Assembly (NCBI GenBank): GCA_016748015.1
Contig: JAAOMT010000128.1
Span: 2,487,538-2,551,537, forward strand
Reading direction: 5' to 3'
Origin: Geosiphon pyriformis uo1
Lineage: Eukaryota > Fungi > Glomeromycota
Length of the DNA: 64,000 nucleotides
The first letter of the stretch is position 1, and each line of letters starts with the position of its first letter. The notes beneath the pieces are model-generated. The model saw only the letters and a list, made by a program, of their open reading frames with translations. It was not told the origin of the DNA and searched no databases. This document shows, in pieces, positions 18,781 through 47,899 of this stretch. Made by a program: the position numbers and the translations under genes.

Positions 18781-20134
18781 CAATGTCACAACATCAGTGC
18801 TGCTTATTGACCTTGAGAAGGAAAAACTAAAACCTACTTGGAAGGTGTACCAAGTATTGTGGGCCGACGTCAACCACAATGAACTGCTGCCAATACTCAC
18901 CTGGAATGACGATAACAATGAAAAGGAGGAACAAGGAAAAGAACCTACCTGGAGAACCACTATTGATGCTTGGACTGATGACAAAGACCACCATGAGCTA
19001 CCACCAATACTATCATAGGACAACAACCCCAAGAGAAAGCAAAGAGAAGAACTTACCTGGGAAACGGACAATCTGACTTGAACTGACAACAATGAAAAAG
19101 AACTGACACCAAGCTGGGAATGGAAAGAAAGCAACAAAGAGAAAGGAAAAGTAAAAGAAGAAGAGCCACTGCCAACAAATATGTATACTTCCTATCAACA
19201 CACAACACCACAACAATTCACCTATCACCAACCCAAACTAGTATGCATTGATTGTAGCAAGAAATTGTCATCAATAGGTGCATGCTGTGGCAACAACAAA
19301 AAATATCAGATGGCAACCAAGTTCTATTGTTGCGCATGCCTCATTAAACATTTTGGAAGACCAAAACAAGTGGAAAAATTGGATAATACACTATGTTTAG
19401 CCTGTGGAGAAACTCTCTTCAATGAAGGAATGTGGAATGACATTCCTGGGAGAGGAGAAATGTGTGATGTGTTCTGCCAATACACAATCTTTATCAATGA
19501 CTGGGTTGAAAAAGAGACACCAATAGAAGCTGCCTGGAGAAGAGCTGTACAGCAATTGGACAGTTGTTCACACAATGACAATAAATTATGGTAAATGGCA
19601 ATTGCCAAAATTGAAGGCACATTGCCAGAAGAAATCAGGACAATTAAAAACAACCCACCAGAACCCATCAAACTTAACTGGAACGCAGAGCCAGTCATAA
19701 ATTTTTTGAAACCAGAAGAGTTCCATGAACACTACCAAAACTTGGCATCCACTAGAGAGGAGCAAAAACAACGGCTAGCACAGTTGAATACAAAACTGTG
19801 TCACCATTGTTTAATTCCCAGTGACTTTAAATATTGTAACAATTATGACCTTATTTACAATCTACCACTATGCATAATCTACACAATCCCTGAAGAGGAA
19901 AAACCAATTAGCAACTGCACATTGGAGTCAGAATTATCATTCGATTCCGATTCAAACTCCGACAATGATAACAACAAGAATAATGGTTTCAGCTCCATTC
20001 AAAATAGCAATGACAATGACAATGATATCAACTCAGATTCAAACTTCGACTCAAACTATGAACAATATATTGTGCTTCTTGACCTCACCAAAGAATAAGA
20101 ACTGAAATGGTTCAGCAATAATAATGAAAGTATT

Positions 20135-20535
20135 ATGCCAGAATGCATACATGATACTAATGTCAGATTTGATTTGAGGTATTCAAGAAAAGATGCCATC
20201 AAATTGGAACCATATTTGTACACTTGTGTTGATCTGAAAATAGCACTGGAAATCCCAGCAACAATAATGATTCAACTATCATCCCAGAGTAGTTTAGCAA
20301 AAAGAAAAATTAATATAAGAGAAGGAATAATTGACGCGGGATATGTAAAAAATATCATCACCATGCTACAAAATGACTCAGAAAAAGCTTATATTATAGA
20401 GCCAAACAAAAAGATAGCACTGGCAATATTCTTACCTTTGGTTAAGATAGCTCAGTTAGTATCAGTGAGAAATAGGGAAGAGTTAGGAATAACAGCAAGA
20501 GGGATACAGGGATTTGGGTCAATGGGTAGAATAGA
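20135..20535 (+). pseudogene. dUTPase domain in Gypsy pol
   Basis: FDLRY, SSQSSLA, GIIDAGY, KIALAI and RGIQGFGSMG are decayed trimeric dUTPase motifs 1-5. Confidence 0.85.
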
Positions 20536-20929
20536 TGTACCAGTTAATATGATGGAGGAAGAAATTGTTGGCCAAGAAGAAATTATCTCAACTGGTCAAG
20601 CTATTTCCATTCTACTATTTAGCCAGTACATACTAGCAATAGAAAGGAAGGAAAAGGAGCAAGAACAGATTTTTGAAGCTAAAACAAATCTTTGTGAATC
20701 AGGAGAGATTAGACTGATCAATCTCTATATACCAGCCAAAATTCCCATATACAACAACACTAACAATGTCATCAACATACCAGAAGGAACCACCATCAGA
20801 TATTTAACCACAGAAATAGAAAACCAACCACCAAACCCCATTCCAGACTTTCCACAACTTTGTGGATATGTTGACATCACATTACAAACAATCTATGGAC
20901 GAAACAAATGTTATTTGCTCTAATCAGAA

Positions 20930-22342
20930 CAATTAGAACAAATGAACATGGGAAATCTAAACCCACTACAACGTATGCAGCTCAAGATGTTACTCAACAA
21001 TTTCAATGACATCTTTGCCAGCGAAAACAAATTTGGCAGAACTGACATTATCCAACATCAAATTAAGACTGGAGATGCAATGTCAATCAAACAGTGAGCA
21101 TACAGGGTACTATCAGCCAGCCATAAAATTATTCATCAAGAGATCAATCAAATGCTTGACAATGGGCTAATCCAGCTATCTATGAGCCCATGGTCATCAC
21201 CAGTGGTACTTGTCCGAAAAAAGAATAGAAAAATCCAATTTTGTGTGGATTACAGAAAACTTAATGGTGTAACTCATGAAGATAGTTATCCAACTCCACA
21301 GATACAAGAATTATTTGATGCTTTCAGTGGAAACAAATGGTTCTCAATGTTAGACTTGGATAGTGGTTACTGGCAAGTAGCCATAGATCCAGCTGACAAA
21401 GAAAAAACAGTGTTTACCACAAGAGAGAGAAATTTTGAATTTGAAGTCATGCCATTTAGCTTGATGAATGCTCCAGCCACATTTCAATGGCTAATGGAAA
21501 TAATATATACTGGCTTATTATGAAAATCAGTAGTAGTTTATCTGGATGATACCAATGTGTTCTCAAAAACTTTTGATGACCATCTACATCATCTTCAACA
21601 AATGTTTGAAAGATTAAGAAGAGCAGAACTAAAGTTGAATGCAACAAAGTGCTTCTTTGGCAAAACAGAACTCAAGTTTTTGGGATATATAGTGAGCAAA
21701 GATGGCATCAAGATAGATCCAGATAAGATAGAGATAGTAAAGAAATTTTCAGTACCAATCAACATAACCGAGTTAAAATTATTTTTGGGATTTGCAGGCT
21801 ACTATCGCTGCTTTATCAAAGACTTTTCTAAGATAGCACAGCCATTCAATCAGCTTCAAACCAAGAATATAAAATATGAATGGACTGAAACCCAGCAAAA
21901 AGCTTTTGACATCTTAAGAAAAAAGCTTATTCAAGCTCTAGTATTGATCTATCCAGATCATAGCAAATCATTCATTATTACTACCAATGCATCAGACCAA
22001 GCATTGGGAGCAGTACTATTTTAGAGAAGACCAGATAGAAGAGAACATCCAGTTGCATATGCCAGCTGAGGTTTAACACCAGCCAAAAAGAACTATAGAA
22101 CACCAGAATTAGAACATTTAACAATCTATTGGGCAGTTATAAAATAGAAAGAATACTTGAGCCAAAAGTTTGAGGTATACACAGATCACAAAAGATTGAC
22201 ATCACTCCAAAAACAAGAATTTGGAGACAGAAGACAGTTAAAATGGAAAATGACACTTTTGCCATATACTTATATCATATATTATAAAAAGGGAAAAAAC
22301 AATGGAAATGTTAACAGTTTGTCACAAATGAGACAAATCTAG
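20930..22342 (+). pseudogene. pol: Gypsy reverse transcriptase and RNase H
   Basis: SPWSSPVVLV, FCVDYRKLN, LDLDSGYWQV, VMPFSLMNAPATFQ, YLDD (~21539-21550), TNASDQALGAVL, YTDHK. Confidence 0.93.
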
Positions 22343-22494
22343 GAACATTTCGACCCAAAAAAATATAACAAAACTGGAACAATACCAACGAAAAATAGAA
22401 CAAAAGATAAACACACAAAAATACCAACAACTTTAAGAGGAGGAATTAAAAGAGTTGGATTTCGATGGAGCTCAATATTAAAAGAAGGGAATAA

Positions 22495-23314
22495 TGTTAC
22501 TCATAGAAATATAGGAAATATATTAGCATGATTATTAGCCAATCAGAAGTAGACATAGTAAATGTGAAATTCCAGGATTCCTCTCAGGAATTGCAGGATT
22601 CCAGAAATTACAAGATTCTCACACAAGGAATTGCAGAATTCCAGAATTTCAGGATTCTTCTCAAAGAAATTGTAGGATTCTAGGAATTCCAGGATTCCTG
22701 TCATGAAGAATCGAGGAATTGAGGAATCTCAATTATGTGAAAAGACAGACCTCTCAGTTTAGATTTGATCTAAACAACCTTTCAAATCACAATAAATAAC
22801 TATTTGTTATCTCAAAACCACTTCTACTATCAACTAGTCATGTTGATAGTAATTGATACTTAACCACACTGAAACAATAGCTCTTGATCATGGCTATTGA
22901 CAAGATACTAAATTTGCAAATTGCTTTGGCTTATTTTTTTATATTTTTTTATTTTTTTTATTTTTCTTTGATTTTGTTATTGTGCACTAACCAATTGAAT
23001 AAAAGCACTGATTACTGACATCAAGGATTGCCTGGTAAAAGATTCTTGCGAGTAGATAGGACACATACAGAAGATACGGATTACTTACCAGAGGATTGCC
23101 AACCACCAAGCCGAGAAAAAAATTGACAGACATGCGAGTCTGGGAAGCTACAGATAAAACAACTATTAAATCTCTGTCCATTATACAAAAGACTCATTTG
23201 GAAAACCTTCAGATACCAACCACTTAAAGATATTATCAACAACACAAGTAGCTTTTGAGCATCAAGTTACGGATTTGTTATTTAACTTGAGACCCCAAAT
23301 AATCAACTATAACA
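22495..23314 (+). repeat. 3' LTR of family-A element
   Basis: Preceded by PPT (22480-22492); lacks ~25 bp around the TATA-like tatatatag present in the 5' LTR. Confidence 0.95.
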
Positions 23315-26510: not shown

Positions 26511-29500
26511 TACTAGATGCAGCCTTTAAATTCACAACAAAGGAGTTATTAGCTAAAAAAATGATAATATAAACTAACAAAAAAAAAATAAAAACTTATT
26601 TTTTAAAAAATACACTTTTTAAAGATTTTTTTGGAAGTAAGAGAGAAAAAAGTTTTTTTTTTGAATTTTTTTATTAATTAAAAACAAATTATTGTTTTTT
26701 ATTATGTGTTAAAAATCAAGTTTTTATATTATTATGTGTTATCTTGCATTATTTTAAGTTATTATATATTATTTTGTATTATTTTATATTATTATATTTT
26801 TTTATATTATTATATATTAATCACATTTTTTTAATAATTTTGGATTGGTTTTTTTACTTGGATAATATTTTTTTTTAGAATTAAGCTTCTGTAAAATTGT
26901 ATGTATTTATAAAAATTGTTTTTTTAGTATAATATTTAATTATTGTATTAAGTATTGCTTTTTATAAGTCTTTAAACTGTAAATTTGTTATTTATTTTAT
27001 GTTGTTAACTATATTAATTTTTAATAAATTGTCTAATAGTATAATTAAACAACATTTAAATATTGAATACAATTGGTATATTGTCTTGTAATATAGTATC
27101 AAATTGTTTCTTCTGACAAAATTTTCTACTTGTTTAAAAGCTTTTTTATTAAATATTTGTTTGTTAATGTTTAAGTATAGTGTTTGTAAATCTAGTCTTT
27201 TGCCAATTCTAAAAAATTAGTAAACTAGTAAAAGTTTTTCTTTTTAAGCTTTGAAAATTTCCAGTATTTAGTTTTTTATGTTTGGTTTTATGGCTAACTT
27301 GTTCAAAGCTTCTTTTATTTTCTTAAATATACAAGATCATAAATTTTTTTTTTCTCTCTTAATTATTTATAAAAATAAAAATACTCAGTTTTAATTGAAT
27401 TTTTGCTCATATTTCTCTTATTTATATTTCTGTATTATATTTTTTTTTATTAATTGTAATTTCTATTGGTGTTATAAATTGTTGAATTGTTTCAAATAAT
27501 TGTTGTAAAAGTTTTAAGATTTTGTTTAAGAAATTTATATTATAAGTATTATTAACTTTTTTTTTGTCTTCTTAATATTTATATATTTATTTTATGTAAT
27601 TTAAATTGTTATACATAGATTGTATTTAATAATAATAATTGATTTTAGATTTTATAATATATTTTTTAGTCTAATTAATGGAATTTGTGTTCTTAGTTAA
27701 AATATAAATAATGATAATTCTTGTATTATATAATAAATTTTTAACCAATTTTCATATATAGCTTTTTTTAAATTTCTGTTTTTTAATTGTAATTTATAAG
27801 CTTTATTGTTTAGAACTTTGTATATGTAAAATAATCTGTTCTATTTTGGGTCAAACTTTTTATTCCACTATTTTTAGTTTTAATACAATATAATAATACT
27901 TGGTCTTCAATTTTAAATTTAACTGATTGATTTGATAAATGATTATTATGTCTTTTTTTTTGTTATTTTAAGTATTATTAATATTGTTAAATGCTGTTTT
28001 ATGAATGTTTTTCAATATTTCTATAAGTTAATATGTTTTTTGGTACAAGATAACTTCAAAATTTTTTTAGTAATTGTTTTTGTTAAAAAAAAAGATATTT
28101 TTTATTTAATATATAGTGTGGCTTTTCTTTATAAACTAGTTTGAATAATGTAAACTGGATAGTATTTTGTTTTAATATTTAGTATATAAATAATACAAAA
28201 GATATAAATAAGTCCTATTCTTGTGCATTTTCATAACTTATTTTTGCTAATGCTTTACACAGTGTTTAGTTAAATTGTTCTACCAGTCTATTTGTTTGTA
28301 AGTAATAAAATAACAATAAAAATCATTTTATTCCAAATTATTGGCTTAGTTCAGTTAGTATACTATTAACAAAATATGTTTTTTGGTTGAATAACAATTT
28401 TTTTGAACATTTATGATAGCAAATTAGATCTTAATGTACAAATTTGACTACTGTTTTAATATTGGCCACTTAAATTGCTCTGGCTTCTGGCCACTTGATA
28501 AGGTAGTTTATAGCTACGGCTATATAACAATTTCCTTTAGATGTAATTAAAAAAGAACTAATTAAATTGATCTTTATTTTATTAAATAAAATTCTAATTA
28601 AAATAGATCAAAGTGGTTCTATTGTTCTGGTTCCTTTTTTTTGTTGGCATGAGTCATAATTACGAACATATTCAAAAATATCCTTATATATTATTGGCCA
28701 ATAGTATAAATTTATTATTTTTTCTAGAGTAATGTCTTTGTTGAAATATCGTGTGGTTGGATTAAAGTGCATATTATGCAGAACAGTTTCTTTTTTATTG
28801 TTTTTTATAACTTATTATAGAGTAATGCAGTTTTAGTGTTCTTGATAATATAGTTGGTTGTTCTAAATAAAATAATTATAAGCTTGTTTTTGTATACTAC
28901 TTTGTTTTTGTTAAGATAATAACTCTTTGAACTAAAGTATTAATAAATACTAGTGTAATTGCTAATAGATAGTTGTATCCATGAGTTTGAAATTAAATTT
29001 GCATCATCCTTAACAAACTATCAGTATTGGTATTCTTGGATTCTTTTTTATAATAAACTTTGTATGGAAATTGTTGCAGATAAATACTTTATTGTGTATA
29101 TTTTTTTTTAGTTATAGTTTACTAAATAACTAAATAAGCTCTTTATGATTAGTGTATAGATCAAATAGTTGATAAAAATAGTGTTTTCAATTTTGTACTC
29201 TCTAGTAGATAGCAAAGCATTCCAAATCTGTTGTGTTATATATTTTTTTCATTGTACTGATACTGTGACTGGCCTAAATGATTGGATGCTTTCTATTGTC
29301 TGATCTAATTTGTAAGAAAATAGCTTCTAGTGCATTTTTCAAAGCATTTGTAGTAACAATAAAACATTTATTAAAGTCTAAATAAATCAATATTGGTGTT
29401 TTTATTAAGTGTTGTTTGAAATAATCAAATGCCTTTTGCTGTTTTTTTCTCTATAGGTATAGAACATGTTTTGATAGTAAGTAATAAAAAAGTTTTGCAA

Positions 29501-30507
29501 TGTTAGAAAAGTCTTTAACAAACTGGTAATAATATTTTGCCAGTCCTAAAAATTTTTGTAATTCTCACAGATTAATTAGGACTGAGAAATTTTTAACTTT
29601 CTGAATTTTATCTGAATTGAATTTTACTTTATTTTTGCCTATTACATATTGTTATAAGTGATTATTTGGGGTCTCAAAGCAAATAACAAATCCATAACTT
29701 GGTATTTAATTGATATCTTGATGTTAGTAGTTGCTGAAGGTTTTGTTGATCTGAAGGTTTTGTTGTGAAGTTCTTTGTATAATGGACAGAGATTTAATAG
29801 TTGTCTTCTTAGTAGTCTGTTGGAATTACAATTCTGTTGAATTTTTTTCTCAGCATAGTGGTTGGTAATCTGACAGAGATGCTCTTTTGGTAAGCTATCT
29901 TTAAATTCTTAAATTATATACCTTTCTTTTAGAGTTTTTTATCAGGCTATCCTTAACTTCAATAACTTAGCATTTTAATCCTTTAATCAATTAGTCAAAC
30001 AAAAAAAATAACAAAGAAAATAAAAGAAATAAGTCAAAGCAGTTTGCATATTAGTATCTTATCAATAGCCATGATTAAAAACTATTGTTTTAGTGTAGTT
30101 AAGTATCAATTATTATCAACATGAAAGATTGATAATAAAAAATAGATTAAAATAATAAATAATTATTTATTTGATATTTGTGAATGAAAAGATTGCTTAG
30201 ATCAAATCTAAACTAAGAAGTCTGTTTTTTCTGCTTCTAATACTACTGCTATATATACCTAATTTATGTTCTATAAGATCACTCATATTTCCAAGCAATA
30301 TGCTATGATTTTTTGAGCAATGCTCACATTGCTGAACAATGTGTTCTAATTTTCTAATATTACTCTACATTGCTGAGTGATATGCCATAATTTCTGACAT
30401 TACTCTACATTACTGAGCAATGTGTTCACATAATAACTCTTACTTCTTTATTGGTCTACTATTTTTCTATATTTGTTTTCTCTTATGAGTAACATTATCT
30501 CCTCCTT

Positions 30508-30910
30508 TTAATATTGAGCTTCATCAAAATCCTTATTTTGAATTATGTCAAATACTTTTTTTTCAAGTAGTGTCTGTTTCACCCTACTTTTTATTTCTTC
30601 AATTTGTGAGTTGTTTATTCTTCCCCATTGGTTAATGGTTATTGTTTCCATGTCAGAGTGTAACAATACTTCTGGGTAGTTTTGAAATATAGTGTGTAGT
30701 CGATAAATGGTTTTGATGTGTAATGTCAAGTTTGTTTTCTTTCTGATAATGTTTTCAATATTTCAAATTATCTCTTGATTAAAGATTCTCTTGGATTTGT
30801 CAAGATATAACTTCTGAATATCTACTTTTCATCCCAATTAGTAGTAGCAGTATGGTATTGGAAGTTGGTCTAACCATTGGTTCTAATTTTTCTTCATCAG
30901 TTCTTCTGTT
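30508..30910 (-). pseudogene. C-terminal part of the retroelement's extra 3' ORF
   Basis: Ends DFDEAQY*, matching DFDGAQY* just before the PPT of the element at 22458-22481. Confidence 0.7.
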
Positions 30911-32255
30911 AGACCCATGATAGTAAATATGTTTAAGAATGTTGTTTGGAAAAAATAAAATCAAAAACTTGTTGTTTGTGCAATATGACAGTTGAGGTTG
31001 GGTCAGAATTGGATGTGGTACTGAACCTGTCAGTGGTTAAATTGACTGATTTTGTGAATATAGTAGATGAAACTTTGAACAAAATAAATACTGTTGTGGA
31101 TGATTTGGAATTTGAAACAAAACATGGTGTCAGGAAATGTGATATGACACCATATCATCATTGTCTGTTAAATAAGTATAATAAAACTTTAAATAATAAA
31201 AGTTATAAAAGTAGATTGACTCATAAGTTAGGTTATAATTTGAAGCAAGTTAAAATGTTAGAATGTTTGGAAAACACATCAGATGAATATGTTTCAAATT
31301 TACAGCCTATTTATCTTGTTACTAAATCAATGTTTTTGAATTATTTGAAGAAAAATAATTCAGAGACTGATCTGAATTTTGGTGAATTGAATACCAATAT
31401 TAATAATGTTGTTACGGAAATAGTTGAATTAACTAAAATCATGAGAGTTTTGAAAGCAAATATTCTGGTACAAGGACCATTTAGTACTGGTAAGTCAAGA
31501 GTACCTAAAAATCAGATGACAAAAAGAGATTTGATCATAACAGCTACTTGCAAGAATAAAGAAGAATATTGTAAGGATAAAAATTTTAAGAAAAGTGGTG
31601 CTATTTGTTTAACATATGCAAGTGTTTTATTGGAATTAAACAATAATCAAGACAAATATAAAAGAGTCATAATAGATGAGTATTATTTAATCAATCCATT
31701 AATGATCATGTGTTATTTGATCTTGGTGAGAAAAAATGATATATTGGTATGTGCAGTTGGTGACAAAAAACAAATCAAGTTTGTGAATAGATCAAAAATT
31801 AATTGTGATACAAAGAAGATTTTTGAAATGATTAACAAAAGATTTTTTTTCAACTTTGTGACACTATGGATTACTAATAGAACTGAACAAGATGTAACTG
31901 AATACACAAAAGGTAGTCTATTTAATTATGACTTGATTTCAACAAATCTCAAACTGGTTACTATTTTTGTGATAAAAGATTCTGCAAGAAAACAAATTGC
32001 CAAGTCTGTCAATCAAATTATGATGTATAATTAAAGACACAAAGAAGATTTGATCACTGAATTTAAGTAGATTGGAAAGACCAACAGCATTCACAAGTCC
32101 CAAGGTATAATGGTCAAGACTTCATATATTGAATTAAAGACTTCTAATAAACCTGCCATAATAGCAAAACCTGAGTACATAAATGTAGCTATTACCAGAT
32201 TAATAGAAGCCGTTTACATGACTCAGGCTATGTATAATATGGTGTTTTCAGTTTT
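30911..32255 (+). pseudogene. Endogenous viral element: viral superfamily-1 RNA helicase (alphavirus-like supergroup)
   Basis: ILVQGPFSTGKS (I), VIIDEYY (II), AVGDKKQI (III), TNRTEQDV (IV). Past the in-frame stops at 32032 and 32068 come SIHKSQG (V) and YINVAITR (VI). Confidence 0.93.
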
Positions 32256-33772
32256 TTGGGTGTAGACAAGCTCAAGAACATGATGTTTGTTAAGAATTGG
32301 TATAATATTAATGGTGCTCAACATATGTCTAAGATTCTTCAACCAGAAAATCACACTATAAGAAACACTATAAATGTTTTTGATACAAGCCATGAATTTA
32401 TCGATAAGTTATTGGGTGATATAAACAAAGATCATCCAAGTATGATGTCATTTATAGAAAAATTTGAATCTAGTAATTTAGCTGGACTGAAATGTGTTAA
32501 TTCTGTTATCATTCGAAAATCAAAATTACAGGCAAAAATGCAGATGAAACATTGTTATAGAGGTTTATCTCATGCTTTGAACTAATCTAATAAGGCACCA
32601 AAGTTCAAAATTTATACTTTCATTAAGAGATATTGTGATAGAATAAATAAAACTTAATTGGAACAAATGCCATATTCTAGAGCATTATTAATGGCTTTTA
32701 AACAGGCCTATTTATCTGAGAAAAGAATGGCTTATGTTGCTAAAGTGTCTAATGATGAGATGACAGCTCTTTATGAATATTTGTCTGGATTAAATGATAT
32801 TAGATTGGGGCAGATAAAGTATTTAGATCATCATGAATTGTTGAGAACACCTTATCAAGCTTATTGCAAAAATCATATTGCTAGTAAGAATGAGAAATGG
32901 ATTAATATAGCTACTAAAACAGAACAAGGTATTATTTATATGCATAAACATATTAATGTATTTTTCTCATACTATTCTCAAGCAGTTATAATGAGGTTGC
33001 AATACATATTAAAGGATAATATTGTCATTGAGATGGGTATGAATAAGTGGCAACTACAATATTGTTTGAAAAGATGCAATTTTAAAGATGAAAAATATTG
33101 TCAAGTTGAAAATGATTTTTCTGAGTATGATGCTACTTAGGGCAAGGAGTTGAAAGATTTTGAAGCAGATTTGTTAAGACTATTGGGTTAGACTGGATCG
33201 GATGCAGATATACATGAATTATATGATACTCAGTGAACTACAAAAACTAATAATGACATGTTAAGAATGAGTTAATCATACATGACTAAATTGGAATTGG
33301 ATACTACTTTATTTGGTAATACAGTTCGTAATATGGCTATGACTGCTTTGATGATAGATTTTGTTAAATCTGAATTGATGGTTGCAATTTTCAAAGGTGA
33401 TGATTCATCTTTAATTTTTAAAACAGTAAAATATTTAATGCCACCCAAAGTTCTTTCAGTAATATACAGTGTAAAGATGAAATATTTTATTAATAGACCG
33501 ACTTATTTTGCATCAAAATTTTATAATAATGATTGTTTACCATTACCTGATTTAGTTAAGTTTGTGGTGAAATTGACTGGGTGTAAATACGAACCCAAGT
33601 TGTTTGATAAACAATTGGAAGAACATTTTATAGCATATAATGATATTATTGATTTGATAGTAAATTACACACAAATAAAGAGATTAGCATTGGATATGTC
33701 ACTTTATTATCATATTAAATACACAAAAGCTTTGCAATTAGTAAACGTGGTTATGAATTGTATAAAATCTAT
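32256..33772 (+). pseudogene. Endogenous viral element: RNA-dependent RNA polymerase, Hepelivirales-like
   Basis: KTEQGI...KHINVFF, ENDFSEYDAT*G (motif A), TKLELDTTLFGNT (decayed motif B), AIFKGDDS (motif C), LPDLVKFVVKL. One reading frame broken only by TAA/TAG/TGA stops explainable as single transitions. Confidence 0.93.
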
Positions 33773-36700
33773 AGAAAATAAAAAAAATAAGCCAAAGCAG
33801 TTTGCACATTAGTATTCTGTCAATAACCATGATCAAAAGCTATTGTTTTAGTGTGGTTAAGTATTAATTATTATCAACATGAAGGGTTAATAGTGAAAAG
33901 TAAATTGAAATAGCGAATAATTATTTATTTAATATTTGTGAATGGAAAGGTTGCTTAGATCAAATCTAAACTGAGAGATCTGTCTTTTTTGCTTCTAATG
34001 CTACCACTATATATACCTAATTTATGTTCTATGAGATCACTCACATTTCTGAGCAATGTGCTATAATTTCTTGAGCAATACTCATATTGCTGAGCAATAT
34101 GCTCTAATTTTCTAACATTGCTCCATATTGCTGAGCAATGTGCTGTAATTTTTAACATTGCTCTACATTACTGAGCAATATGCTCATGTGCTAACTCCTA
34201 CTTCCTTATTGGTCTACTATTTTTCTAGATCTGTTTTCTTTTATAAGTAACAATGTCTTAAAAATTTAAGTTTAGTTTTTCTAAAGAAATATTTATCAGA
34301 GTTAAGTTTTAGTTCAGCATTCTGAAGGTAGTCAAAGACTTGTTAAAAGTAGAGCAAGTGGTTATTGAATATTTCAGAAAATACATTAGTGTTATTTAGA
34401 TATATTATAACTGATTTCCAAAAAAATTTCTTGTATATAATATTTATAAGACATTGAAAAGTAGTGGAAACATTGTAGAGTCCAAAGAACATTATATTGA
34501 ATTCAAAATTTCTGTTTTGTGTAGTAAATGCTGTTTTTTTTTGTTTTTGAAATTTATTTCAACTTGCCAATATTCACTGGCTAAGTCCAATAATGAAAAT
34601 TATTTTTTCTTTTCTAAATTATCCAAAATTTCTTGAATCAGAAAAGTAAAATAACTATCTTTTTAAATAATGCTGTTTAACTTTCAGTAGTTTATGCAAA
34701 ACCATATTTTTTCATTTTTTTGGTAACTAATATGATTGAGAAAGACCAAGGGCTTAACAATTTTTTGATTAATCTATTATCTAGTATTTGTTGTATTTTC
34801 TGTTTAATCAGGTTATTGCCTACTAAAATTATTTGATAAATTTGTTGTTTAATAAGTTATGTATCTTCTATGTCAATTTGGTATTTCACAATATTAATAC
34901 ATCTGAATTTATTTTCACTGACAAAAACATCAGCATATTGTTTCAAGAAAACTTTGAGTTGTATTTGTTGCAGAATACTCAAGTTTCTTAAATTTAGTTT
35001 AGCAATTTCTTTAAATATAAACAAATAACTTTCTTTTGGCAAATTTTATACTTGTAAAATAATATTGCAGAATAAAAACAGTTGTGCAAAGTCCAAAATA
35101 GGTTGTGGTTTCTTGGAATTCTGAATGTTGAAAGAAATAAAACCAACAAGAGTTTTTTTGGAAATTTTAATAACATTTTTAGTGGAGTTGTGGATGAAGA
35201 TTTTAAAATATTTATAAGTCTTAATAAGAATATATAGATTAATAACATTAGCTAAACAACAGATTTTTAGATCAGCTTTAAATAATAATGTTTGGTCTTG
35301 AATCTTCTAATCCACTTTGAAAATGTACTGTTGATGTGAGAAAATGGAGATAACTGTATTAGTATAAATGAATTCTATTTTGTTATTGTCTTTTTTTACA
35401 AAATTAATTAGTACATTTCCTTTTTTACTTAATTCAAATCCATTAATATCTTTAGCAGTAAAGTCTAGTTTTCACATAATGTGATTGAGATTAATTGTAA
35501 TATTTTTATAAAGAGTAAAAAGATAGCTTAAGCAATTTTTTTTTGTAATTTAATTGTATAAGATTTATTGAAATTGTTTTGTAGCATGACAATGATGTTT
35601 TCTATGTATTCAACATCAATAATTCTTTCTTTTATGTTAATTTCTTTTTTTGCAAGGTTCGACTGTAAGACAACTTAAATTATAGTACTAACAGAAATTT
35701 CTAAAGCTATTTTGAGATCTATTTTTACAAGAGAGTGTAAGACTATAACTACAGAAGATTGTTTGAAATATTTTAAATCAAATTCATTATTGTTTTCATG
35801 TGTTTTTTCAGAGCAGATTTTTTTGTTGTTGTTGTTATACTATTTTAATTTTAATTTTTTGGAAAAATTAAAATAAGCAAAATACTAATCTATTTTAGTA
35901 GCATCACTTGGCTCTTGAAACAACATATCTTTAGCATTAAATTCATATTTTTCTTCTGGTTCTGGTAATTTAATAATAAAATATAGTGTTTTTAAAAGTA
36001 GATTAAATATGAGTTCACACTCATCACAATACTAAAAATGACAAAAAATTAAGCAATAATTACATAGTTTTGTATTGAGATCTGTTAGTTTCTGTTTCTG
36101 TTTTTTTCAGATTGGAGCCAGTTCTTAGTACTAGTTTTGAAATACTTCAGAGTCATTCATAAATATATTATCTATTTCTTTAATTATTATTGGGGCATTT
36201 TTTATAATGCATATTTTTTTAATTGTAATATTTTCTCATTAGGCTGTAGCCATTTTTCAAATTTTCTCTTCATTGTAAAAGTATAAGTCCAATCAATTTA
36301 TTGTTTGACTATAAACTATAACAAATGAAATTTTTTTTCAAACCCAGTTATTAATTAGGATAGTATACTAACAAGATTTGTTATATGTTCTTCCTTTGCC
36401 TAAGACATTATTTTATAATTCTTTATTTGGTAGAATTTTATCACAGATAAGACATAGTATATTGTTTTATTGCCTTGTTATTTAAGTTGTCTATATTATT
36501 TTAATACATAAAGTCAGCAGTAATATTTGGTGGCTGTTGGTCATACTTTATCATCTCTATTACAAGTGTCTATTGAAGACAACTTTTTTTCATAATTGAC
36601 ACAGATTAATTTAAGGGATTGATAGGGTTGTTCTCTTTAATTCAGACTTAGATAGATTGGTGGTAATTTAGAGATTCTTCATTAGCCTTTCTTTTACTAT

Positions 36701-38226
36701 TTTTTTTTTAGATAGAAAGCAGTAATAGTTTTGTCTTGTAATCATCAGTTAACAAAACTTGGTAAGTTTTTAATGTTGGTAGTGGCACTATTTCTTTAAA
36801 TTTGATTAATAATTAATCTAAGTTTTGGGTTCTGAAATGTCTATACATGGCAGGTACTTGAGCATATTGCTTATTAAAAATAATTTGAAATTCTTGTGTG
36901 TTTTAGTCAATAGTGGTATAAGCTTTTAATAGCCAATTGTTTTCTACAAAGACTTAATATTAGATGGCTTTTATAATGAGTATCTTAATAGAGATTTAAA
37001 TTCTATTAATTTTAAAGGGAAAATTATTAATTTCTCTTATTAAAGTTTTGATATTCCCATCTACAGTAATTATTTGAGCAGTGGAAGTATAGTCTACTCA
37101 ATAACCTAGTTGGTCTATAAGTTGTTTTATAATAATACTATCTGTAGATTCACTATTAAGTATTAATTTAATGTTTATTTGTTCTGCTTTAGTATTAGTG
37201 TACATTGTTGTAATTGGCTTATCCTAATTAATAGTGGCTTCTCTAAAAAGGTTAGTAGTGTTCAGATTATCAATATCATATAGAAATATTGTAGTGAGAG
37301 TATTATTCTTGGTGATTGTGGTAAATGAAATTGTATTGGTAAACAAGTTACTGTTTTGAATAGAAGAATTGCTGATTTTAACTATACTTTTTTCTTCTAA
37401 AGATACAATATTACCAAAATTTGGGGTTTCAGTAAGACCCAAATATGAGAGCTGGTTAGAATATCTAGTTTGTATTACTTGTGATAATATGTTGTCTCAA
37501 TTTACTGGTTAAGATGGCTTATTAATAGATTGTATCTGATTTTCACTAGTGTTTTGCCATTTTTAATTGTAGTTAATTGTTTAAAGTCTGAGATAGCTAT
37601 ATATAAGAGCTTGATATTGAGACATTGTTTACACTATTGCTTGTAATAACTGATAGTAATTTTGGGGTGATTAATACAAGTACTATAGTGGCTAATATTG
37701 GGATACAGAATATTGGGGTTCTATGACTTGAGAATATCTTTATTGTTGTAGATATTGGTTTTCTTAGTTTTGGTCTGCTATTTTTTTTTAGCAATTCCAG
37801 GCAATATGTTTGGGTTTCTAATAGTAATAACAATTGTGAAGATCTGATTTCCAAGATTGTTATTGTTAATTTTATTGGTGTTAATATCAATTGTTGTTGT
37901 CTCTACATTGTGATGGTTAATAGGTTTCTGCTGTTTTGGTTAAAAATCTCTCAATTTTTTGAATTAATTTCTTATTTAATTGGATAAGCTTAGTGTTAAT
38001 ATCTAAGATTCCATTTATGGCCAAATTAACAGCTTAAGTATGATTGGCTTTTTGTTCCACTGACTTAAACTTACAAGCCAAAGTAATAGCATCTTATAAT
38101 GTAATTAGATAATAAAATTTTATGGATTATAAAATGCTGCTCTTTAATCTTTTAATGAATTAGTTGAGAATTTGTTTTAGGATATAATATTCTCTTTCAA
38201 TCATCTATATTTGTTAAAGAACTTGA

Positions 38227-39180: not shown

Positions 39181-41943
39181 CTGATTAAACTGTTCAAGAT
39201 AAGTAATTACTGCTTTATAGTCGTTTTGTTTTATTACATTGAATTAATTTTGTAACCAAATGAGTGTATTGAAATCACAGAAATATTGCAAAAAGGCAAG
39301 TTTAAAAGCAGCAAAGTCAGTTGGTTTTTCCTTAAGACTTTGGTATTAGAAGTCTGTAGTTCTTGTTAAAAAGAAAAGCAGTGCTTGAATAGTTCTATTA
39401 TTGTTCCAATTGTTGGCAATAATTGCCTTTTTAGCTTCTGCTATTCAAATGTATATATTGTTTTCTTTCTTGGAAAACTTTTCTAGTCTGACAATATCTT
39501 GATAAGCTATTATCTAAGTAACAGAAAGTAATTTACTTGTTAATAATAAGAGGTTTAATAGTAGTGTACTATATTGTTTTCTGGGCATTAATATTGGTTG
39601 TTTTTCTTTGTTGTTAGAATTAATAGGCAGCAAGATGGCTGTTTTTTCTATAGGAATAGTTGCTAATTCTGTTAGAAGTTGTGCTGGTAGTGGTGTTCAA
39701 GAGAATGTACTTTTGTCAAGTTTATTAACTGTTGAAATAAGATTCCTGAATAATGATTTGTATTCTTTTAGAAATTTTGTCCAAAAATTATTATTATGAT
39801 TTTAAAGGTACAGAGTTTTGGAAGTTTTTAGAGTTTTCATTTGTGTTTTTATAAGTTGATTAAATAAAATTCTACTTTTTGGTATCTAATAATATGAAGA
39901 AGTATTTGGTAAAAGAAATCTTGATTTTTTGTTGATTATAAATTAAATTTGTTTTATGCAGCTTTTGTATTATCAGATTTGAACTCTGATTCTGTAAAGT
40001 CAGACTTTATTAGTTGTTTTTTTATTTGAAGGTACTGTTTTATCATGTATTCTTCAATTTTTTTGTTAATTATATAAAGAGTCTCAGTTATAGTTCAAGT
40101 AGTGGTTTCTGTTAAGTATGTTAATAATTTTTGATAAATTTGTTTTCTGAATTTTCTTGTGTCTATTGCTCAGCCTAATAGACAGTCAATTTTGGTATAC
40201 AAATAATGACAAAAATTACTTTCTGTAATTATGGTTTCTAATAGTATTCTTAAGTCTTCTTTAAAGTATTGAAATAAGGCTTTTTCATACAGTGAGTAAT
40301 TTCTTTCTACTGTTCTAATAGTCACAACTTTTGTGAATTTCTGGAGTGCTCTGTCTTTGTGAATTTTATAACTTTACAGAAAACACTAAATATTACAAAT
40401 AAACTTAATAGTATATTAGTGTTATTAGTTTCTGAAAATTTTTTGATTGATGTGAATTTATTTATAGAGTTTTTTAATTATAAAACACAGAGAGATGATT
40501 TCATAGTATTACAATTTCGTATATGTGAGTTATCTTCTTTGAGTTAGTTAAGTGTAGTTATTAGGATTTAATAATGTTTTTTTACCTTTCTAATAAGCTA
40601 ACAAGATAATATTAATATCTAATTCTAGAAGAAGCTTTTTTTTTTTACCAGGCTATTACAAAATCTATTTTCAGACAGTTAATTTTCTTATGTTGCTACT
40701 CTACAAAAAAAAACAGTAAAAAAAAAAGAACAAAAAAGAAAAATAAAAGAGAAGAAATTAACATTATTAATTGCTGTGATTAAGAGTGATTGGTTTAAGT
40801 TGTAATATTTTGAAGTAGTTTTATGCTAAAAACATCTGGCTAAGAACAAAGATAAGAACAAGATTAATTCAGCTAAAATATGAGAATATGTGAATTATAT
40901 AAACATAAATTTTGGATTTGTTAATATTTTTTTTATTTCAGTAATATAAAATATAGGATATAATAAGGGATATGTAACAGATTTAGTTAGAAGAAAGTTG
41001 ATTTTTGTCTATTTTCTTTTTTTATCTTCTACAACTACTTTTTTTTTATACATTGTTACTGGAGGTTTTTGGTCTCTTTTCTTAAATGTTGTTGATGCCT
41101 GTTTGTTGTAAATTCACGTTTTCTGGATGTAGTTGAACCTCCAATAACTGAATTTATCTTCAAATTATCTCCTATAATTTGAACTGCTGAGCTTATAAGT
41201 AAAATGGCCAATTCTTTGCCAGTTACTTTATGTAGTTACATTGTAGTAAACATCAACTTTTTCCCAGGAATTGCTCATCTGGAAGCTCACTGAAATGTAT
41301 AGTTACTTTGCTGTGAAAGTCAACTTTTCTACAAGAATCTTGTCTGTAGGCTACCCTAATGATTATAATAAGAAAAGAAAAAAATAATAAAAGAAATGTA
41401 AAAGAAATAGAATTTTGTCAAGAAAAACGTTTTCTATCCAGGCCTGGAGTCACTAACAGTTTATTGAAATTGGTAGCTAATTAATTTCAAAACATTAGTT
41501 GGGTTTTGAGGATTTTCCAAGTGCAATAATTTAAAGAATTTGGTTTTTCGATTTATTTGATATTTTTTTCTTTTTGTGTGTGTAGGAATGATTTTAAGTA
41601 ATAAATCTAAAGTAAGATACATTTTCCAGAAGAGAAAAGCTCTTCTTTTATACAACTTGTTGTAGTACTAGTCTATGAACTTGCACTTTTTCTCTTTGCT
41701 CAAATTTTGGCAAATTTCTTATAAATTTCAGCGAATTTCTGTAAATTTCGGCAAATTTTTGAATATTACAAAGTTCAGGGTATTGTGTAATTTGATCATT
41801 CTACTTTCTGTTATACTAATTAGATTATTTTAATTGAATCGTAATATGTGATAATTGATTAAATAATAAATGATAATTTGAAATGATATTAATATACTAA
41901 TAAATTATAGGAATTATAAGGGTAATTTCATGCTAATTAATAG

Positions 41944-42651
41944 CTAAAATTCTACTGGTAACATAATCTCCTCTTTAAGACTGAGCTCCGTCGAAGTCCA
42001 AGCACTATCTGTAATATTGAGATAGTAATCTAAAATAATTGAAGTAATCTGGTCTGAAAATTGTTGAAATTTCAGTTCTGTGAGTTTGCCAATGTATTGG
42101 ACTTTCATTGGTTGCAGTATTAGATTTTGTAGAACATTTTCACAAGTATTAAACAAGTTATAGAGTCTAAGAGCCACTCTAAGTTTGTAGTGAGTGTTTG
42201 TTGATCCAGCTGCTGTTTTGAATTTATTGTGGATTTGTTTTTGTATAACTTCAGAAGTGAGATTTGTTGCTTCAAGTTCCAGTTTTCGTTCATAAAGTGT
42301 TTTTCCAATTTGAAAGTATTTATAGATAGGGGTGTGTTCATTGTTCTGTTCATTAAGAAGTAGTAGAAGTTTTTGTTGTATTGTAGTATTTGGTGGAATG
42401 TTAATAGGGGCAATTAAAAGATTTTCTTCTAGTACCTGCTTCAAAAGTCTTGGTAATCTATTCTCAGAGTGACTTCTTGTTTTTCTTCTATAGAGGTGAT
42501 AGTTCTGTAAATGATTTGCTACTGGGGCTGTGGTTTCTTTCTGAATGTAATTAATTTGACTTCCATTAATCGTTATAGATAAGTCAGGAAGTGTTTTCAA
42601 GATTAACATTAATTTTTGGGATATTTGTTGAATATTTCGAGGAATAATCAT
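41944..42651 (-). CDS. Extra ORF downstream of integrase (235 aa, unknown function), stop inside the 3' LTR
   Basis: Open ATG-initiated frame between integrase and the 3' LTR; no hydrophobic TM stretch visible; pattern shared with 61068-61820. Confidence 0.7.
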   Translation of the reverse strand: MIIPRNIQQISQKLMLILKTLPDLSITINGSQINYIQKETTAPVANHLQNYHLYRRKTRSHSENRLPRLLKQVLEENLLIAPINIPPNTTIQQKLLLLLNEQNNEHTPIYKYFQIGKTLYERKLELEATNLTSEVIQKQIHNKFKTAAGSTNTHYKLRVALRLYNLFNTCENVLQNLILQPMKVQYIGKLTELKFQQFSDQITSIILDYYLNITDSAWTSTELSLKEEIMLPVEF

Positions 42652-42899
42652 GATAAAATTGACTAATGAATAAAGAAAATAATTTTTGGATATGGGGTTT
42701 TTATTTGTTTTTGGTTTTGGGTGTTTGGTAATTATTTACTATTTTTGTCTTTATGTTTTTATTAGAGAATTATTGTAAAATTTAAGTGTTCAAGTTTGGT
42801 TGTTGTTCTATTATAATTATTGGTTCTAAATTTCGGGGAATATCTTCAGAATTAATTAAAGGAGAATGTGTACCAATTTGTGGAATTAATGGTTCAGGA

Positions 42900-44170
42900 T
42901 TGTTTCTGGAATGATAGTGTTTCAATCTGTCTTTATGTGCAACTTTTGCTAATATTTTGTCATCAAGTTTTAACTTATATAATCCATTGCCTAGAATTTC
43001 GTGAATATAAAATGGTCCATCCTATTTGTTTTCAAATTTCCCACTCCATTGTTTTTCAGCCTTAGTTCTGTGTAAGAGAATTTTATTTCCAACTTTAAAT
43101 TTATTGGTAATAGGTGATAATTTGTTATCATGTCTTTCTTTTTGTTGAGCTTGGGAATGTTCAATATGAGTTGCTGCTATTTTTCTTTTTCCTTCTAGTG
43201 TACTAAGAAGAGTGTAGGCTCTTCTTTGGAATGTCTCTTGAAAGTTTTCTTCATTGATTGGTTGCACTGGGTATGTTTCCACTGTGAAATTAATTGGTAA
43301 TATTGCTGTCTTTCCATAAGTAAGATCAAATGGTATGTGTTTCATAGTATCTTGTTTTAGTGTTCTGTATGCTAGTAACACTGATGAAATAAAGATATCC
43401 CATTCCTGCTCAAAGTCTGTTAAGACTTTGGTTAGAGATTCACACAATGTTCTGTTGAAACATTCTACAAGTCCATTTGTTTGAAGGTAATAAGGTAATG
43501 ATAGAGGTCTTTTGACATTGAACTGTTCATAAATTTCTTGTATCAAGTTGTTCACAAAATGTGTTCCTTGATCAAATAAGAGTTTAATTGGGCATCCATG
43601 TCTACAGATAATGTCTTCATAGATGAAATTTGCTACTGATTTTGCATCTACTCTTTGGATGGCTCTAGCTTCAGGCCATTTGGTAAGATAATCCACTGCA
43701 ACTGCAATATAATAATTTCCTTGGGTTGTGATAGGTAATGGTCCGACTAAATCAATTCCAACTCTGTCAAAAAGTTGTCCAACTTTGATTGAATTTAAAG
43801 GTTCTGTGGGGCGAGTTCCTTCTTTTCTTTAACAATTATCACAAGATTCTACATATTGTCGAATGTTTTTTTGCATGTGAGGCCAAAAATAATGTTCAAG
43901 AGTTCTTTGAATTGTTCCCTCTTTTCCCAAGTGTGCTGAAGACGGATCTGTGTGCATGTTGTATAAAATTGTTTTTTTTTCATTCTCTTGTACTAATCTG
44001 AGTGGCTGGTTTGGTTTTCTGTGATTTTTATAATAGATTTTGTTCTAGTGTATGAAATATTGTTTTAATTGGTGTTGTAAGCAGAGTTTTTCACTTGGAG
44101 ACCAGTTTTCTGACATGGTAAGAGTCTCCAAATAATTTTTAAGATTGCTGTAGTTTCTGGGATCCATTCT
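42900..44170 (-). pseudogene. Gypsy integrase
   Basis: HTDPSSAHLG...CDNC (HHCC), VGIDLVGP, DYLTKWPEA, DQGTHF, NGLVECFN, and the GPF motif after WSGKF. Confidence 0.92.
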
Positions 44171-44229
44171 TGTTTGGTTATTTTGTTGATAAGTTGGTAA
44201 GTTGTGATGGAATTGTTGTTGGTATTAAT

Positions 44230-45640
44230 CTTGTCTTATTCTTGAGAGGCTATCAACATTGGTATGTAGTTTTTCTGGTTTGTGGTGTACAATATATCTG
44301 TAGTCTGCTAGGAAGTCATTCCATCAAAACTGTTTGGCATTTTGTTCAGTTTTCTTTTTATTAAGCCATTTGAGGCCAATATTGTCCATTATTATGTCAA
44401 ATTCTTTTTCATTCTTCAGATATTGTTGAAAATGTTTAAGAGCCCAAATAACTGCAGCAGCTTTTAATTCAATTAAGCCATATTTGAGTTCTATTAGCTT
44501 GAGTGTTCTGCTGGCATAGGCAATAATTTGTTCTTGGCCATTTTTATCCAATTGTGATAAGATGGCACCAAATGCTATGTGTGAGACATCAGTGGCTAAT
44601 TGGAATCGTTTGTTGAAGTCTGGATAAGCAAGAACTGGGGCTGTTGTCAATTTTGTTTTGAGAATTTCAAAAGCTTTTTGTTGTTCTTTAGTCCATTTGT
44701 ATGGTATGTTTTTGTTGATAAGATAATTGAGTGGTTTGGCAATTTCTGAGAATCCTTTTATGAATTTTTAATAGTAAGAGACTAATTCCACAAATTCTCT
44801 TAGTTCTGTAGTATTTCTGGGGGTTTGAAGGTTTTTGACAGCACTGATTGTTCCTGGATTTGGTTTGATTCTATCTTTACTAACTATGTGTCCAAGAAAG
44901 ATCAAGCTTGTTTTTCCAAAGTGACATTTCTCAATATTTAACTTTAATCCTGCTTTCTGTAATCGTTGAAAAACTTCTCGCAAGTGAATGAGATGGGCTT
45001 CAAAGCTTGGTGAGTATACATTAGTATTATCAAGATAAACAATTACTGATTGCCATAAGAGCCTTTCATAGACAACATCCATGAGTCGCTGAAATGTTGC
45101 TGGTGTATTGCAGAGTCCAAAAAGCATAACATTAAACTCATAATTTCCTCCTTGAGTGGTGAATGCTGTTTTGGGTCTATCTTTTGGGTCCATTTCGACT
45201 TGTCAGTATCCACTTTCCAGGTCTAAAGTTGAAAAGAACTTGGCTTTTCCTAGAGCATTTAGCATGTCATCAATTCTTAGAAAAGAGTAGGCATCTCCAA
45301 TTGTAACACTATTCAGTTGTCTATAATCAACACAGAATCTGATTTTTCCATTTTTTTTTTTAACTAAAACTACTGGTGAGGCCCAAGAACTTCTTGATGG
45401 TTGAATCAATCCGTTATTGAGCATTTTTTGGACCTTTTCTCTGATAAATTGGTGGCTGGCAGGTGGCACTTGATAAGCTTGTTGACGTTTTGGTAAAGCA
45501 TCTCCTGTATGGATCTGATGTTGAACAATGTCTGTTTTTCCCAAGTCATTGTTGTTTTTTGCAAATATATCTGCAAATTCAGCTATTAATTGTTTCAATT
45601 GTCTTTGTTGTTGAGGTTCTAAGGGACTCATATTGATTCG
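44230..45640 (-). pseudogene. pol: Gypsy RT and RNase H
   Basis: SWASPVVLV, FCVDYRQLN, TLDLESGY, FGLCNTPATFQ, YLDN, LATDVS, IAYASR. Confidence 0.93.
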
Positions 45641-46069
45641 AGAGAGTTTTTCTTCCAACAAGTAGTAGTTTTCAGTGGTGGGAATGATATTTGGATTTGG
45701 GAGTAGAGTATGCTTTACAATTTCGATGAAATTAGAGACAATTTGAGGATTTTCATCTTGAAAAATATTGCTGTGTATGATTCCAATTTCTAATTTGTTT
45801 AATAAAACAATAGGGTAATTATTGGAATTGTAGAATGTAACTCGAAATTTTTTCATTCCTTTGGGAATATAAACGTTTGGAATTGATATTTCATGCTTCA
45901 AACAGATTTGTTTATTGGATTCAAAGATTTGTTGTGTAGTGGTGGGTTTTGAGCAAGTGTAAATTTCGTGATGTTCTCCAAAAGGTGAAATGGTAATTGG
46001 CTGAGGAAGTTGAAGAATCTGGTGAGATTTATTTTGTGTATTAAGAACTATGTTTACTGGGACTGTAAA

Positions 46070-46490
46070 TCGTCCAGTTGAACCAAAACCTTGAGTTTCT
46101 CTTTCACTTTTTCCCAATTGNNNNNNNNNNNNNNNNNNNNTGAAATGTTGATTAAGGGTAAGTAAATTGCTTGAGCAATTTTTTCAGCATGTTCAATTTT
46201 GAATGGTTTGTCTGTCTCATTCTGTAACATGATGGTAATGTCTCCAGTGTATCCTGCATCTATAACTCCTCCTCTAATATTGATTCCTTTGCTTGCCAAT
46301 GATGATCTGGAGGCAATTTGAACCATTGCTCCTGGTGGAATTTCAAGAGCAATTTTGAGATTGATTTTTGTCAAAGACTTTGGTTGGAGAATCAAAGTAT
46401 CTTTTTCTGGGTATCTTAGGTCATATCCAGCATCAATTTCGTGTGCTTTTTCTGGTCTGATTCCTTGGCCATGGTTGTCAAAATATTTAA
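46070..46490 (-). pseudogene. dUTPase domain in Gypsy pol (spans N gap)
   Basis: DAGYDL, ASRSSLA, GGVIDAGYTGDI, EKIAQAI and, after the gap, RETQGFGSTG: all five motifs. Confidence 0.92.
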
Positions 46491-47419
46491 GTTGTAGAGG
46501 TGGTTGTTTTTCAAGAAGATAAATGGAAGTAGTTGGTAGTTCTTCTACTAGTTCAGATACTCTAAATTCGATTTCATTTTCATCATTCTCATTTGACAGA
46601 GGAATGCTAAGAGCATAACATTCTAAACACCATTGGTCATTACAAGGCATAACACATTCTTCACACAATTGAATGTTCATTTGCTCTAATCATTGAATTT
46701 GAGCTTTTTTGGTCGGATATGTGTGGCTTGCAATTTGGTGGTAGGTTTCTACTTCATCTTCATAATCAAATCCAGCTAATTTCATGGTATACTCAATATA
46801 TTCAGCTTCTTTCATTTGGCAGACATCTTCTTGGGTGGCTCCATTGATCAATGCCATTGTTAGATCAAAAATCATTTCAGCATCATGAGGGTAGTGGTAA
46901 AGTTTATTGAGAGCACTGTTGTATACTGCATCAAATGGTGTTCCTCTTCTGACTTTTTCCGAAATTGATAGAGCATATTGACAGGTTTGATCATATACTT
47001 CTCCTCTCATTGCTACATTAATCCAATTGCATTCTTCTGGTAGCATTTCTCCACATGTAAGACAAGATATGTTGTTCTATTTTCCACTTCTTTTTGGAGA
47101 TCCAAATCGTTCTCTATGGCATGCTTTGCAAAAGTAACAGGTATGAGTTTCATATTCCTCTTCTGGAAAAATACATGCTCCCATTGATGAAAGTTTTTTG
47201 TTGCAATCTTTGCATTTGAGTGGAATATAGGGTGGTTGTTTTCATGGTTCTGGTGTAGAATATCTAACTTTTTTCTATTCCCTTGATTCTTCAAAAATCT
47301 CTTGTTCGGTTTTTTCAGCCCAATTGGATGTTGATCCAAAAGCCATGTAGGTTTCAGTAAGTGGCATTTTTTTCTCCTCTTCAAATTCAAATATTGGAGC
47401 TTTTTCTGATCGTTTGTTA

Positions 47420-47800: not shown

Positions 47801-47899
47801 GCTTTCTGTTCATTGACTGCTGCATTACTAAGCAGAAATGATGATTCATTTGCTTCAAATTCAAATGGAAATATATCTGACAGATTAGCATTTTAGGCA

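Follow-up and report, generated by a model that had tools for sequence, protein, structure and literature searches.

Capture of RNA viruses by long terminal repeat (LTR) retrotransposons is known in animals, whereas in the literature searched, which took in few subscription journals, we found no fungal case, that is, no account of the locus described here or of any LTR-bounded RNA-virus insert in a fungus. In Bursaphelenchus xylophilus, a nodavirus RNA-dependent RNA polymerase (RdRp) lies inside a Bel/Pao LTR element and has been named eBxnv-1 (PMC5177903). Three papers (PMC5177903, PMC4964890, and PMC2805616) refer to a hybrid cDNA of intracisternal A-type particle and lymphocytic choriomeningitis virus (IAP-LCMV; Geuking et al. 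2009). In Aedes, LTR-associated viral DNA has been described (PMC6797480). For LTR-mediated retroposition, short overlaps at the junctions were reported in 25 of 29 cases (PMC5131818). The endogenous viral elements (EVEs) described from fungi include totivirus-like genes in yeasts, in whose flanks retroelement signatures are not obvious (PMC2805616), a hypovirus-like fragment in Gigaspora, the locus of which gives ~98% antisense small RNAs (PMC7082362), and a durna-like clade in Mortierellaceae (PMC7482067, PMC12548735). In addition, arbuscular mycorrhizal (AM) fungi produce small RNAs from transposons (10.1101/2021.03.30.436303), and a basal tymo-like virus has been reported from RNA-seq of Geosiphon pyriformis (PMC7482067). 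Here we analyze a stretch of 64,000 nucleotides of G. pyriformis uo1 (assembly GCA_016748015.1, contig JAAOMT010000128.1, positions 2,487,538 to 2,551,537; hereafter the window, with position 1 as its first letter), in which a decayed, dead hybrid of a Gypsy retrotransposon and an RNA virus is nested in the reverse transcriptase (RT) gene of an older Gypsy element.

The hybrid unit, which is known here from the assembled sequence alone, occupies positions 34252 to 29650 of the minus strand. Read in that direction it comprises 480 nt of a Gypsy 5' LTR, ~2.86 kb of viral sequence in antisense, the tail of an extra open reading frame (ORF), a polypurine tract (PPT), and an LTR of 845 nt. The features of the unit and of its host element are:

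34253..37307, minus strand: older host Gypsy, upstream part (protease, dUTPase, and RT up to the insertion)
34253..34256, minus strand: target-site duplication, copy beside the 5' LTR piece (flank comparison)
33773..34252, minus strand: 5' LTR piece, first 480 of 845 nt, starting with TG (LTR-pair alignment)
33773..33788, plus strand: probable overlap (microhomology) of the LTR and the viral RdRp C-terminus, as judged from a 46%-identical relative
32238..33772, plus strand: viral RdRp frame (RdRP_2)
30913..32265, plus strand: viral superfamily-1 helicase frame (Viral_helicase1)
30903..30940, no strand: left junction zone, viral insert to extra ORF (composition and tail match)
30496..30909, minus strand: 3' tail of the element's extra ORF (match to 27240-26869)
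30495..30510, minus strand: polypurine tract (common to the sibling element)
29650..30494, minus strand: complete 845-nt 3' LTR, TG..CA (LTR alignment)
29646..29649, minus strand: target-site duplication, second copy, with one C/T difference (flank comparison)
26869..29649, minus strand: older host Gypsy, downstream part (RT end, RNase H, integrase, and extra ORF)

On the minus strand the unit starts with TG at 34252 and ends with CA at 29650. A gapless alignment pairs the 5' LTR piece (34252-33773) with the opening 480 nt of the LTR at 30494-29650; 411 of 480 positions are identical, and 67 of the 69 mismatches are transitions. The piece is without the final 365 nt of the LTR but retains a TATA-like motif (LTR position 238) and an AATAAA (position 324). 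No motif resembling a primer-binding site (PBS) follows the piece, whereas both other LTR elements checked in the window have one; a TGG motif is found 2 nt behind the 5' LTR in both of them (15154-23314 and 41054-50828). The whole of gag-pol is absent from the hybrid. Its extra-ORF tail (30909-30496) has 31% identity (E value 1e-14) to positions 27240-26869 of the host element, the extra ORF being located after the integrase in intact relatives, and the PPT at ~30510-30495 is shared with the sibling element 15154-23314. The LTRs of this sibling, which has frames for protease, dUTPase, and RT, are 68-71% identical to those of the hybrid. The parent type is Ty3/Gypsy, based on the order protease-RT-RNase H-integrase and a Ty3-type gag in the host element and in element 41054-50828; the assignment thus rests on related elements, the hybrid itself having no pol. 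By its viral coding sequence, its two LTRs with TG..CA ends, its target-site duplication, and the equal age of insert and LTRs, the hybrid corresponds to a non-retroviral EVE captured by an LTR retrotransposon. It is not a remobilizable non-autonomous LTR element, which would possess a complete 5' LTR and a PBS, and because the PBS is missing, further retrotransposition or secondary mobilization is unlikely.

The insert was translated on the plus strand, with X at the stops, and scanned against Pfam. Viral_helicase1 was matched at 31489-32199 (E value 2.4e-9; translated segment 30910-32241) and RdRP_2 at 32496-33770 (E value 1.4e-33; translated segment 32172-33812). The viral coding strand is therefore plus while that of the element is minus, so that the insert is antisense to the element. 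The helicase is encoded in one frame and the RdRp in another. The changeover, near 32238-32262, may stem from the virus or from subsequent decay, and no canonical slippery heptamer was seen on inspection by eye. The helicase frame includes 365 open codons (30937-32034), and ~110 codons upstream in this frame are without a matched homologue. In the RdRp, the GDD is present, motif B is degenerate, and there are 6 internal stops; the frame ends ~10 codons short of the C-terminus of the nearest relative. The window's own gene model (P0004) is listed as Geosiphon pyriformis G9A89_020190. An earlier reading of this DNA, made from the sequence alone, had proposed the same order of LTR, antisense replicase, extra-ORF tail, PPT, and full LTR, had noted TG..CA at both ends, and had named the two viral profiles as a check; alignment and Pfam confirm this layout, the ends are as it described them, and both profiles were matched.

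Apart from the gene model of the window, the nearest protein is P0003, a JGI stand-alone RdRp prediction of 514 aa on a contig of 4651 nt, which has 46% identity to the insert over 481 aa. A helicase-RdRp (P0005; CAG8658881.1) is predicted from the Ambispora gerdemannii assembly on a contig of 3984 nt and shares 26% identity with the helicase and 30% with the RdRp part of the insert; it is a single protein predicted from genomic sequence, possibly with splicing. We take both Geosiphon and Ambispora to belong to the Archaeosporales. A midpoint-rooted FastTree phylogeny of 150 polymerase cores (P0002, P0003, and P0005-P0152; 291 columns), from which P0001 and P0004 were excluded, joins the insert, P0003, and P0005 in a clade with a support of 0.96. 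The next nodes have support values of 0.12 and 0.45, and no supported sister to this clade was found among the 150 cores, in particular none that would place it in Martellivirales, Tymovirales, or Hepelivirales, named relatives having at most ~30% identity to P0003. More distant named matches are closterovirids, a carlavirus, and a bastrovirus, with 25-35% identity to P0003. The succession of a superfamily-1 helicase and an RdRP_2-type polymerase, as present in the insert, is the arrangement of the Alsuviricetes (alphavirus-like supergroup), and the top Atlas matches for the insert's relative are Kitrinoviricota RdRps at 0.98. The insert begins downstream of the expected position of an alphavirus-type capping enzyme, and no Vmethyltransf match was found in P0005 with Pfam. 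The source was most likely, judging from these sequence comparisons, an unclassified Alsuviricetes virus of these fungi, a host assignment made because there are two genomic traces, the Geosiphon insert and Ambispora P0005.

Several searches for additional relatives were negative. No relative was confirmed when metagenome and viral contigs were scanned with P0003 and an alignment, and a PDB search gave no match. Longer fused relatives were absent from 4111 candidate predicted proteins, a weak search, and among 489 candidates for shorter pieces only the window's own gene model matched. A second copy of the insert was found neither in the window nor among predicted proteins of 30-281, 300-958, and 959-2735 aa in a search that was weak and word-based. 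The supplements of PMC12548735 contain no mention of Geosiphon, Ambispora, or the two accessions.

The unit is flanked by 4 nt that differ by one transition: on the minus strand, ACAT stands on one side and ATAT on the other (plus strand, ATGT/ATAT). By itself such a match has p ~0.035. However, the host RT is back in one frame after removal of the unit together with 4 nt, and not with 0 or 5 nt, and both further LTR-bounded elements that were checked in the window (15154-23314 and 41054-50828) have exact 4-bp duplications. The duplication around the whole unit is of integrase type. It and the restored host RT had both been claimed in the sequence-only reading and are borne out.

The right junction is exact at 33772/33773. 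For the left junction, a composition change-point favors 30909-30919 (90% set 30903-31049, with a loose upper bound); at the DNA level the tail aligns too weakly with the host element to place it. The positions given earlier, ~33773 and ~30910, agree with these results, the former exactly and the latter as lying within the best range, though not as a base-level position. The 5' LTR piece comes to its end where the LTR is richest in T (45 of 825 LTR positions are as T-rich). When the viral frame is read on past the junction, the codons that lie just within the LTR match still align with the RdRp of P0003. The number of other LTR positions that score equally well ranges from 0 of 829 to 19 of 835 with windows of 2-8 codons and is 37 of 841 with a window of one codon. 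This suggests that LTR and virus overlap by ~7-16 nt at 33773, a test which is supporting and not decisive.

The decay of the unit provides an internal clock. The per-copy C-to-T rate of the LTR pair is 0.20 raw and 0.255 when corrected for sites changed in both copies. Over 945 viral codons of the insert, 9 of 46 codons that a single transition can turn into a stop are stops (0.196; confidence interval 0.09-0.34), a fraction compatible with the LTR rate of 0.255 (binomial p 0.40). The corresponding fraction is 0.25 in the extra-ORF tail and 0.33 in the host pol (37 of 111; segments defined by tblastn). Two younger elements used for calibration have stop fractions of 0.064 and 0.047, their LTR rates being 0.127 and 0.070, so that the ratio of stop fraction to LTR rate is 0.5-0.7 in these elements and 0.77 in the insert. 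The insert and the LTRs are of the same age, within a wide interval, and since the insert is as decayed as its LTRs there is no sign of a later patch. The CpG observed/expected ratio of the insert is 0.17, 4 of its 8 aligned stops face a Gln or Trp of P0003 (p 2e-4), and losses of GC-rich residues outnumber gains (57 versus 31). The CpG depletion, the Gln/Trp stops, and the loss of GC-rich residues indicate that the insert has resided in this genome as DNA for a long time and speak against an assembly chimera.

With respect to sequence context, the rates of C decay in the hybrid LTR pair (33773-34252/30015-30494) are 0.20 for CpA, 0.18 for CpC, 0.16 for CpT, and 0.50 for CpG, a decay broader than CpG deamination alone would produce. 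The LTR pair of the sibling (15154-15998/22495-23314) also shows 67 transitions among 69 differences.

During reverse transcription, a (+) RNA that is copied in minus-strand synthesis ends up as a sense insert and one copied in plus-strand synthesis as an antisense insert, and a minus-strand switch onto a (+) RNA keeps the PBS if the switch back lands in the interior. In viruses of this kind, (+) strands are more abundant than (-) strands. Because a plain minus-strand double switch gives a sense insert, the antisense orientation requires either capture during plus-strand synthesis or an antisense template. We propose that plus-strand LTR DNA was primed on viral (+) RNA in the particle and that integrase inserted the hybrid in one event, a route to which we give an even chance. 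The ends, duplication, orientation, truncation, and equal decay are observed; co-packaging and each of the template switches are inferred, in the following way. The LTR, the PPT, and at least the extra-ORF tail would have been copied in minus-strand synthesis. Plus-strand DNA started at the PPT would then have halted at nt 480, in a T-rich stretch, and its T-rich end may have annealed to a co-packaged viral (+) RNA at an A-rich site close to where the RdRp ends. RT would have copied ~2.86 kb of the viral RNA toward its 5' end, which would give the antisense orientation, before switching back, within the extra ORF, to the minus-strand DNA of the element and finishing through the PPT and the 3' LTR. 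Integrase would have inserted this hybrid with both TG..CA ends intact and with a 4-bp duplication; the PBS-less hybrid would be unable to retrotranspose again, and it has since undergone C-to-T decay. The plus-strand route accounts jointly for the antisense insert, the cut inside the 5' LTR, and the loss of the PBS. Taken more broadly, viral capture inside the particle by any route, followed by one integration, is probable. The sequence-only reading had likewise invoked co-packaging of a viral RNA, two template switches by RT, and insertion of the chimera by integrase. Its capture at the time of reverse transcription and its insertion as one unit are supported by the target-site duplication, the ends, the equal decay, the likely overlap, and the Archaeosporales relative.

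A number of points weigh against the plus-strand route. The end product alone is visible, and either an antisense template or a later microhomology-mediated deletion yields the same sequence; the sibling element shows that internal deletions occur here. The difference in decay between the insert and the host pol is not significant (Fisher p 0.12), the interval of the clock is wide, and the LTR copies are unequally decayed, with 24 derived sites in the 5' piece and 43 in the 3' LTR (p 0.027). The overlap depends on a relative of 46% identity with a one-residue gap upstream, and its test was designed after the junction had been seen, while the left junction is placed only to a range and not to the base. 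An antisense template copied inside the particle during minus-strand synthesis could have been a viral minus strand, a dsRNA intermediate, or RNA transcribed in antisense from a genomic copy already present. As the PBS would not have been copied, the T-rich overlap would serve the second strand transfer, and integrase would insert one unit. This fits the target duplication, the clock, and the overlap equally well, but it requires either the scarcer, membrane-shielded strand or a donor copy, none of which was found in the window or among predicted proteins (a weak, word-based search), as well as a second unusual event for the cut in the 5' LTR. Therefore, although it corresponds to the standard microsimilarity double-switch model as described in PMC5131818, we regard it as unlikely.

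Alternatively, the captured hybrid may have possessed a full 5' LTR and a PBS, and a microhomology-mediated deletion later took 365 nt, the PBS, and the viral 3' end. Ordinary genome decay would then explain both the truncation and the overlap, the sibling 15154-23314 has lost its integrase region, and the clock cannot separate this history from priming on the viral RNA; we nevertheless consider it quite improbable, because it adds one event and leaves the antisense orientation unexplained, plus-strand capture or an antisense template being needed still. The target duplication dates only the insertion of the element, and end joining leaves microhomology too, so that a complete Gypsy might have been inserted first, with a break that deleted its interior and free viral cDNA joined by microhomology-mediated end joining. 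A later patch should be younger, yet decay has gone as far in the insert as in the LTR pair (0.77 of the LTR rate), which confines such a repair to the time soon after insertion and makes it distinctly unlikely. That a chimeric contig joins contaminating viral sequence to repeats is very improbable indeed. The assembly does have errors, such as an exact 1966-nt duplication around an N gap in the window, but the insert bears the decay signature of the genome, the nearest run of N is >11 kb away, and the ends, the duplication, and the host frame are mutually consistent.

Several other elements are present in the window. In the sibling Gypsy (15154-23314, plus strand), the LTRs of the pair are 91.6% identical, and a 4-bp duplication and a PBS-like motif are present; its RNase H region abuts the end of the extra ORF almost directly, the integrase apparently having been deleted. 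The element at 41054-50828 (minus strand) is a younger, nearly intact Gypsy with gag, protease, dUTPase, RT, RNase H, integrase, and extra ORF, and its LTRs are 95.7% identical. Extra ORFs after the integrase are found on the minus strand at 41944-42735, 61068-61820, and 26869-27240. The two that were scanned gave no Pfam match, and the nearest Atlas clusters are Mucoromycota hypothetical proteins. An Atlas match to a closterovirus coat protein was weak (0.91; 137 of 256 features) and was treated as probable chance, and a single-sequence fold of the extra ORF at 41944-42735 had a pLDDT of 39. Identical copies of 1966 nt at 2145-4110 and 4131-6096 flank a gap of 20 N and are probably a scaffolding artefact. 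Fragments of non-LTR type are located at 11217-14953 and 1919-5149, with an RT Pfam match at 13346-13813, and contain frames that we take to be RNase H-like.

RNA-virus EVEs are known from fungi, but their entry route is usually erased. Because the target duplication, both LTR ends, the PPT, the likely overlap, and an internal clock have been kept at this locus, the route is here readable and testable. The antisense orientation and the loss of the PBS give a prediction that separates the two modes of capture across genomes: inserts captured in plus-strand synthesis should be antisense and have their 5' junction inside the LTR or directly after it, while those captured in minus-strand synthesis should be sense and accompanied by a PBS. 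It is conceivable, though on balance rather unlikely, that the plus-strand route recurs in Glomeromycotina and lays down heritable antisense templates against the fungi's own viruses, with the present locus keeping a primary junction; if so, LTR priming on viral RNA would by construction give PBS-less, immobile, antisense inserts behind an LTR promoter. The locus, moreover, connects Archaeosporales fungi with an alphavirus-like lineage that is unclassified. The hybrid is dead but well preserved, and its value lies in a readable mechanism, a fungal setting, and this virus lineage.

In the way it works, the hybrid resembles LTR-mediated retroposition (PMC5131818) and eBxnv-1 (PMC5177903). As in the yeasts, Gigaspora, and Mortierellaceae, RNA-virus genes are found in fungal nuclear DNA, Glomeromycotina included, but the accounts in PMC7082362, PMC7482067, and PMC12548735 describe, in the parts that treat these EVEs, no LTR structure, and the virus class of the fungal EVEs described differs from that of the Alsuviricetes-like insert. 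The tymo-like virus described from G. pyriformis shares with the insert the host species, the broad RNA-virus branch, and a deep unclassified position, although it is reported as infecting (PMC7482067); the two were compared by description. The virus reported from the Geosiphon transcriptome may be unrelated, may be linked to the insert of the hybrid as its source lineage, or may even be a transcript of that insert. IAP-LCMV and the Aedes cases also involve hybrid DNA made by the RT of an LTR element from a non-retroviral RNA, but in mammalian and insect systems, unlike the fungal hybrid. Genomic copies of this type can yield antisense small RNAs, for which PMC6797480 is the insect precedent. 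An antisense silencing role for the Geosiphon insert is plausible in view of the transposon small RNAs of AM fungi and the viral fragment in an antisense small-RNA locus of Gigaspora.

In LTR-mediated retroposition, as in the hybrid, a foreign RNA replaces the interior while both LTR ends are kept for integrase. The cases in PMC5131818 are described as having host mRNA as cargo, with the internal ORFs replaced, and their products can remobilize; in contrast, the cargo here is viral and antisense, the 5' LTR is incomplete, the PBS is missing, and remobilization is not expected. With eBxnv-1 the hybrid shares the polymerase of a (+)RNA virus between the LTRs of a retroelement and, as far as the window and the predicted proteins show, the single copy; eBxnv-1 has been ascribed to copy-choice by RT in the particle (PMC5177903). 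The terms "target site" and "orientation" are absent from the main text of that paper. As described there, eBxnv-1 is an animal element that has kept a PBS and pieces of pol and is expressed, whereas the Geosiphon hybrid is a fungal Gypsy without gag-pol or PBS, with its junction inside the 5' LTR, an antisense and dated insert, and a target-site duplication confirmed by the host reading frame.

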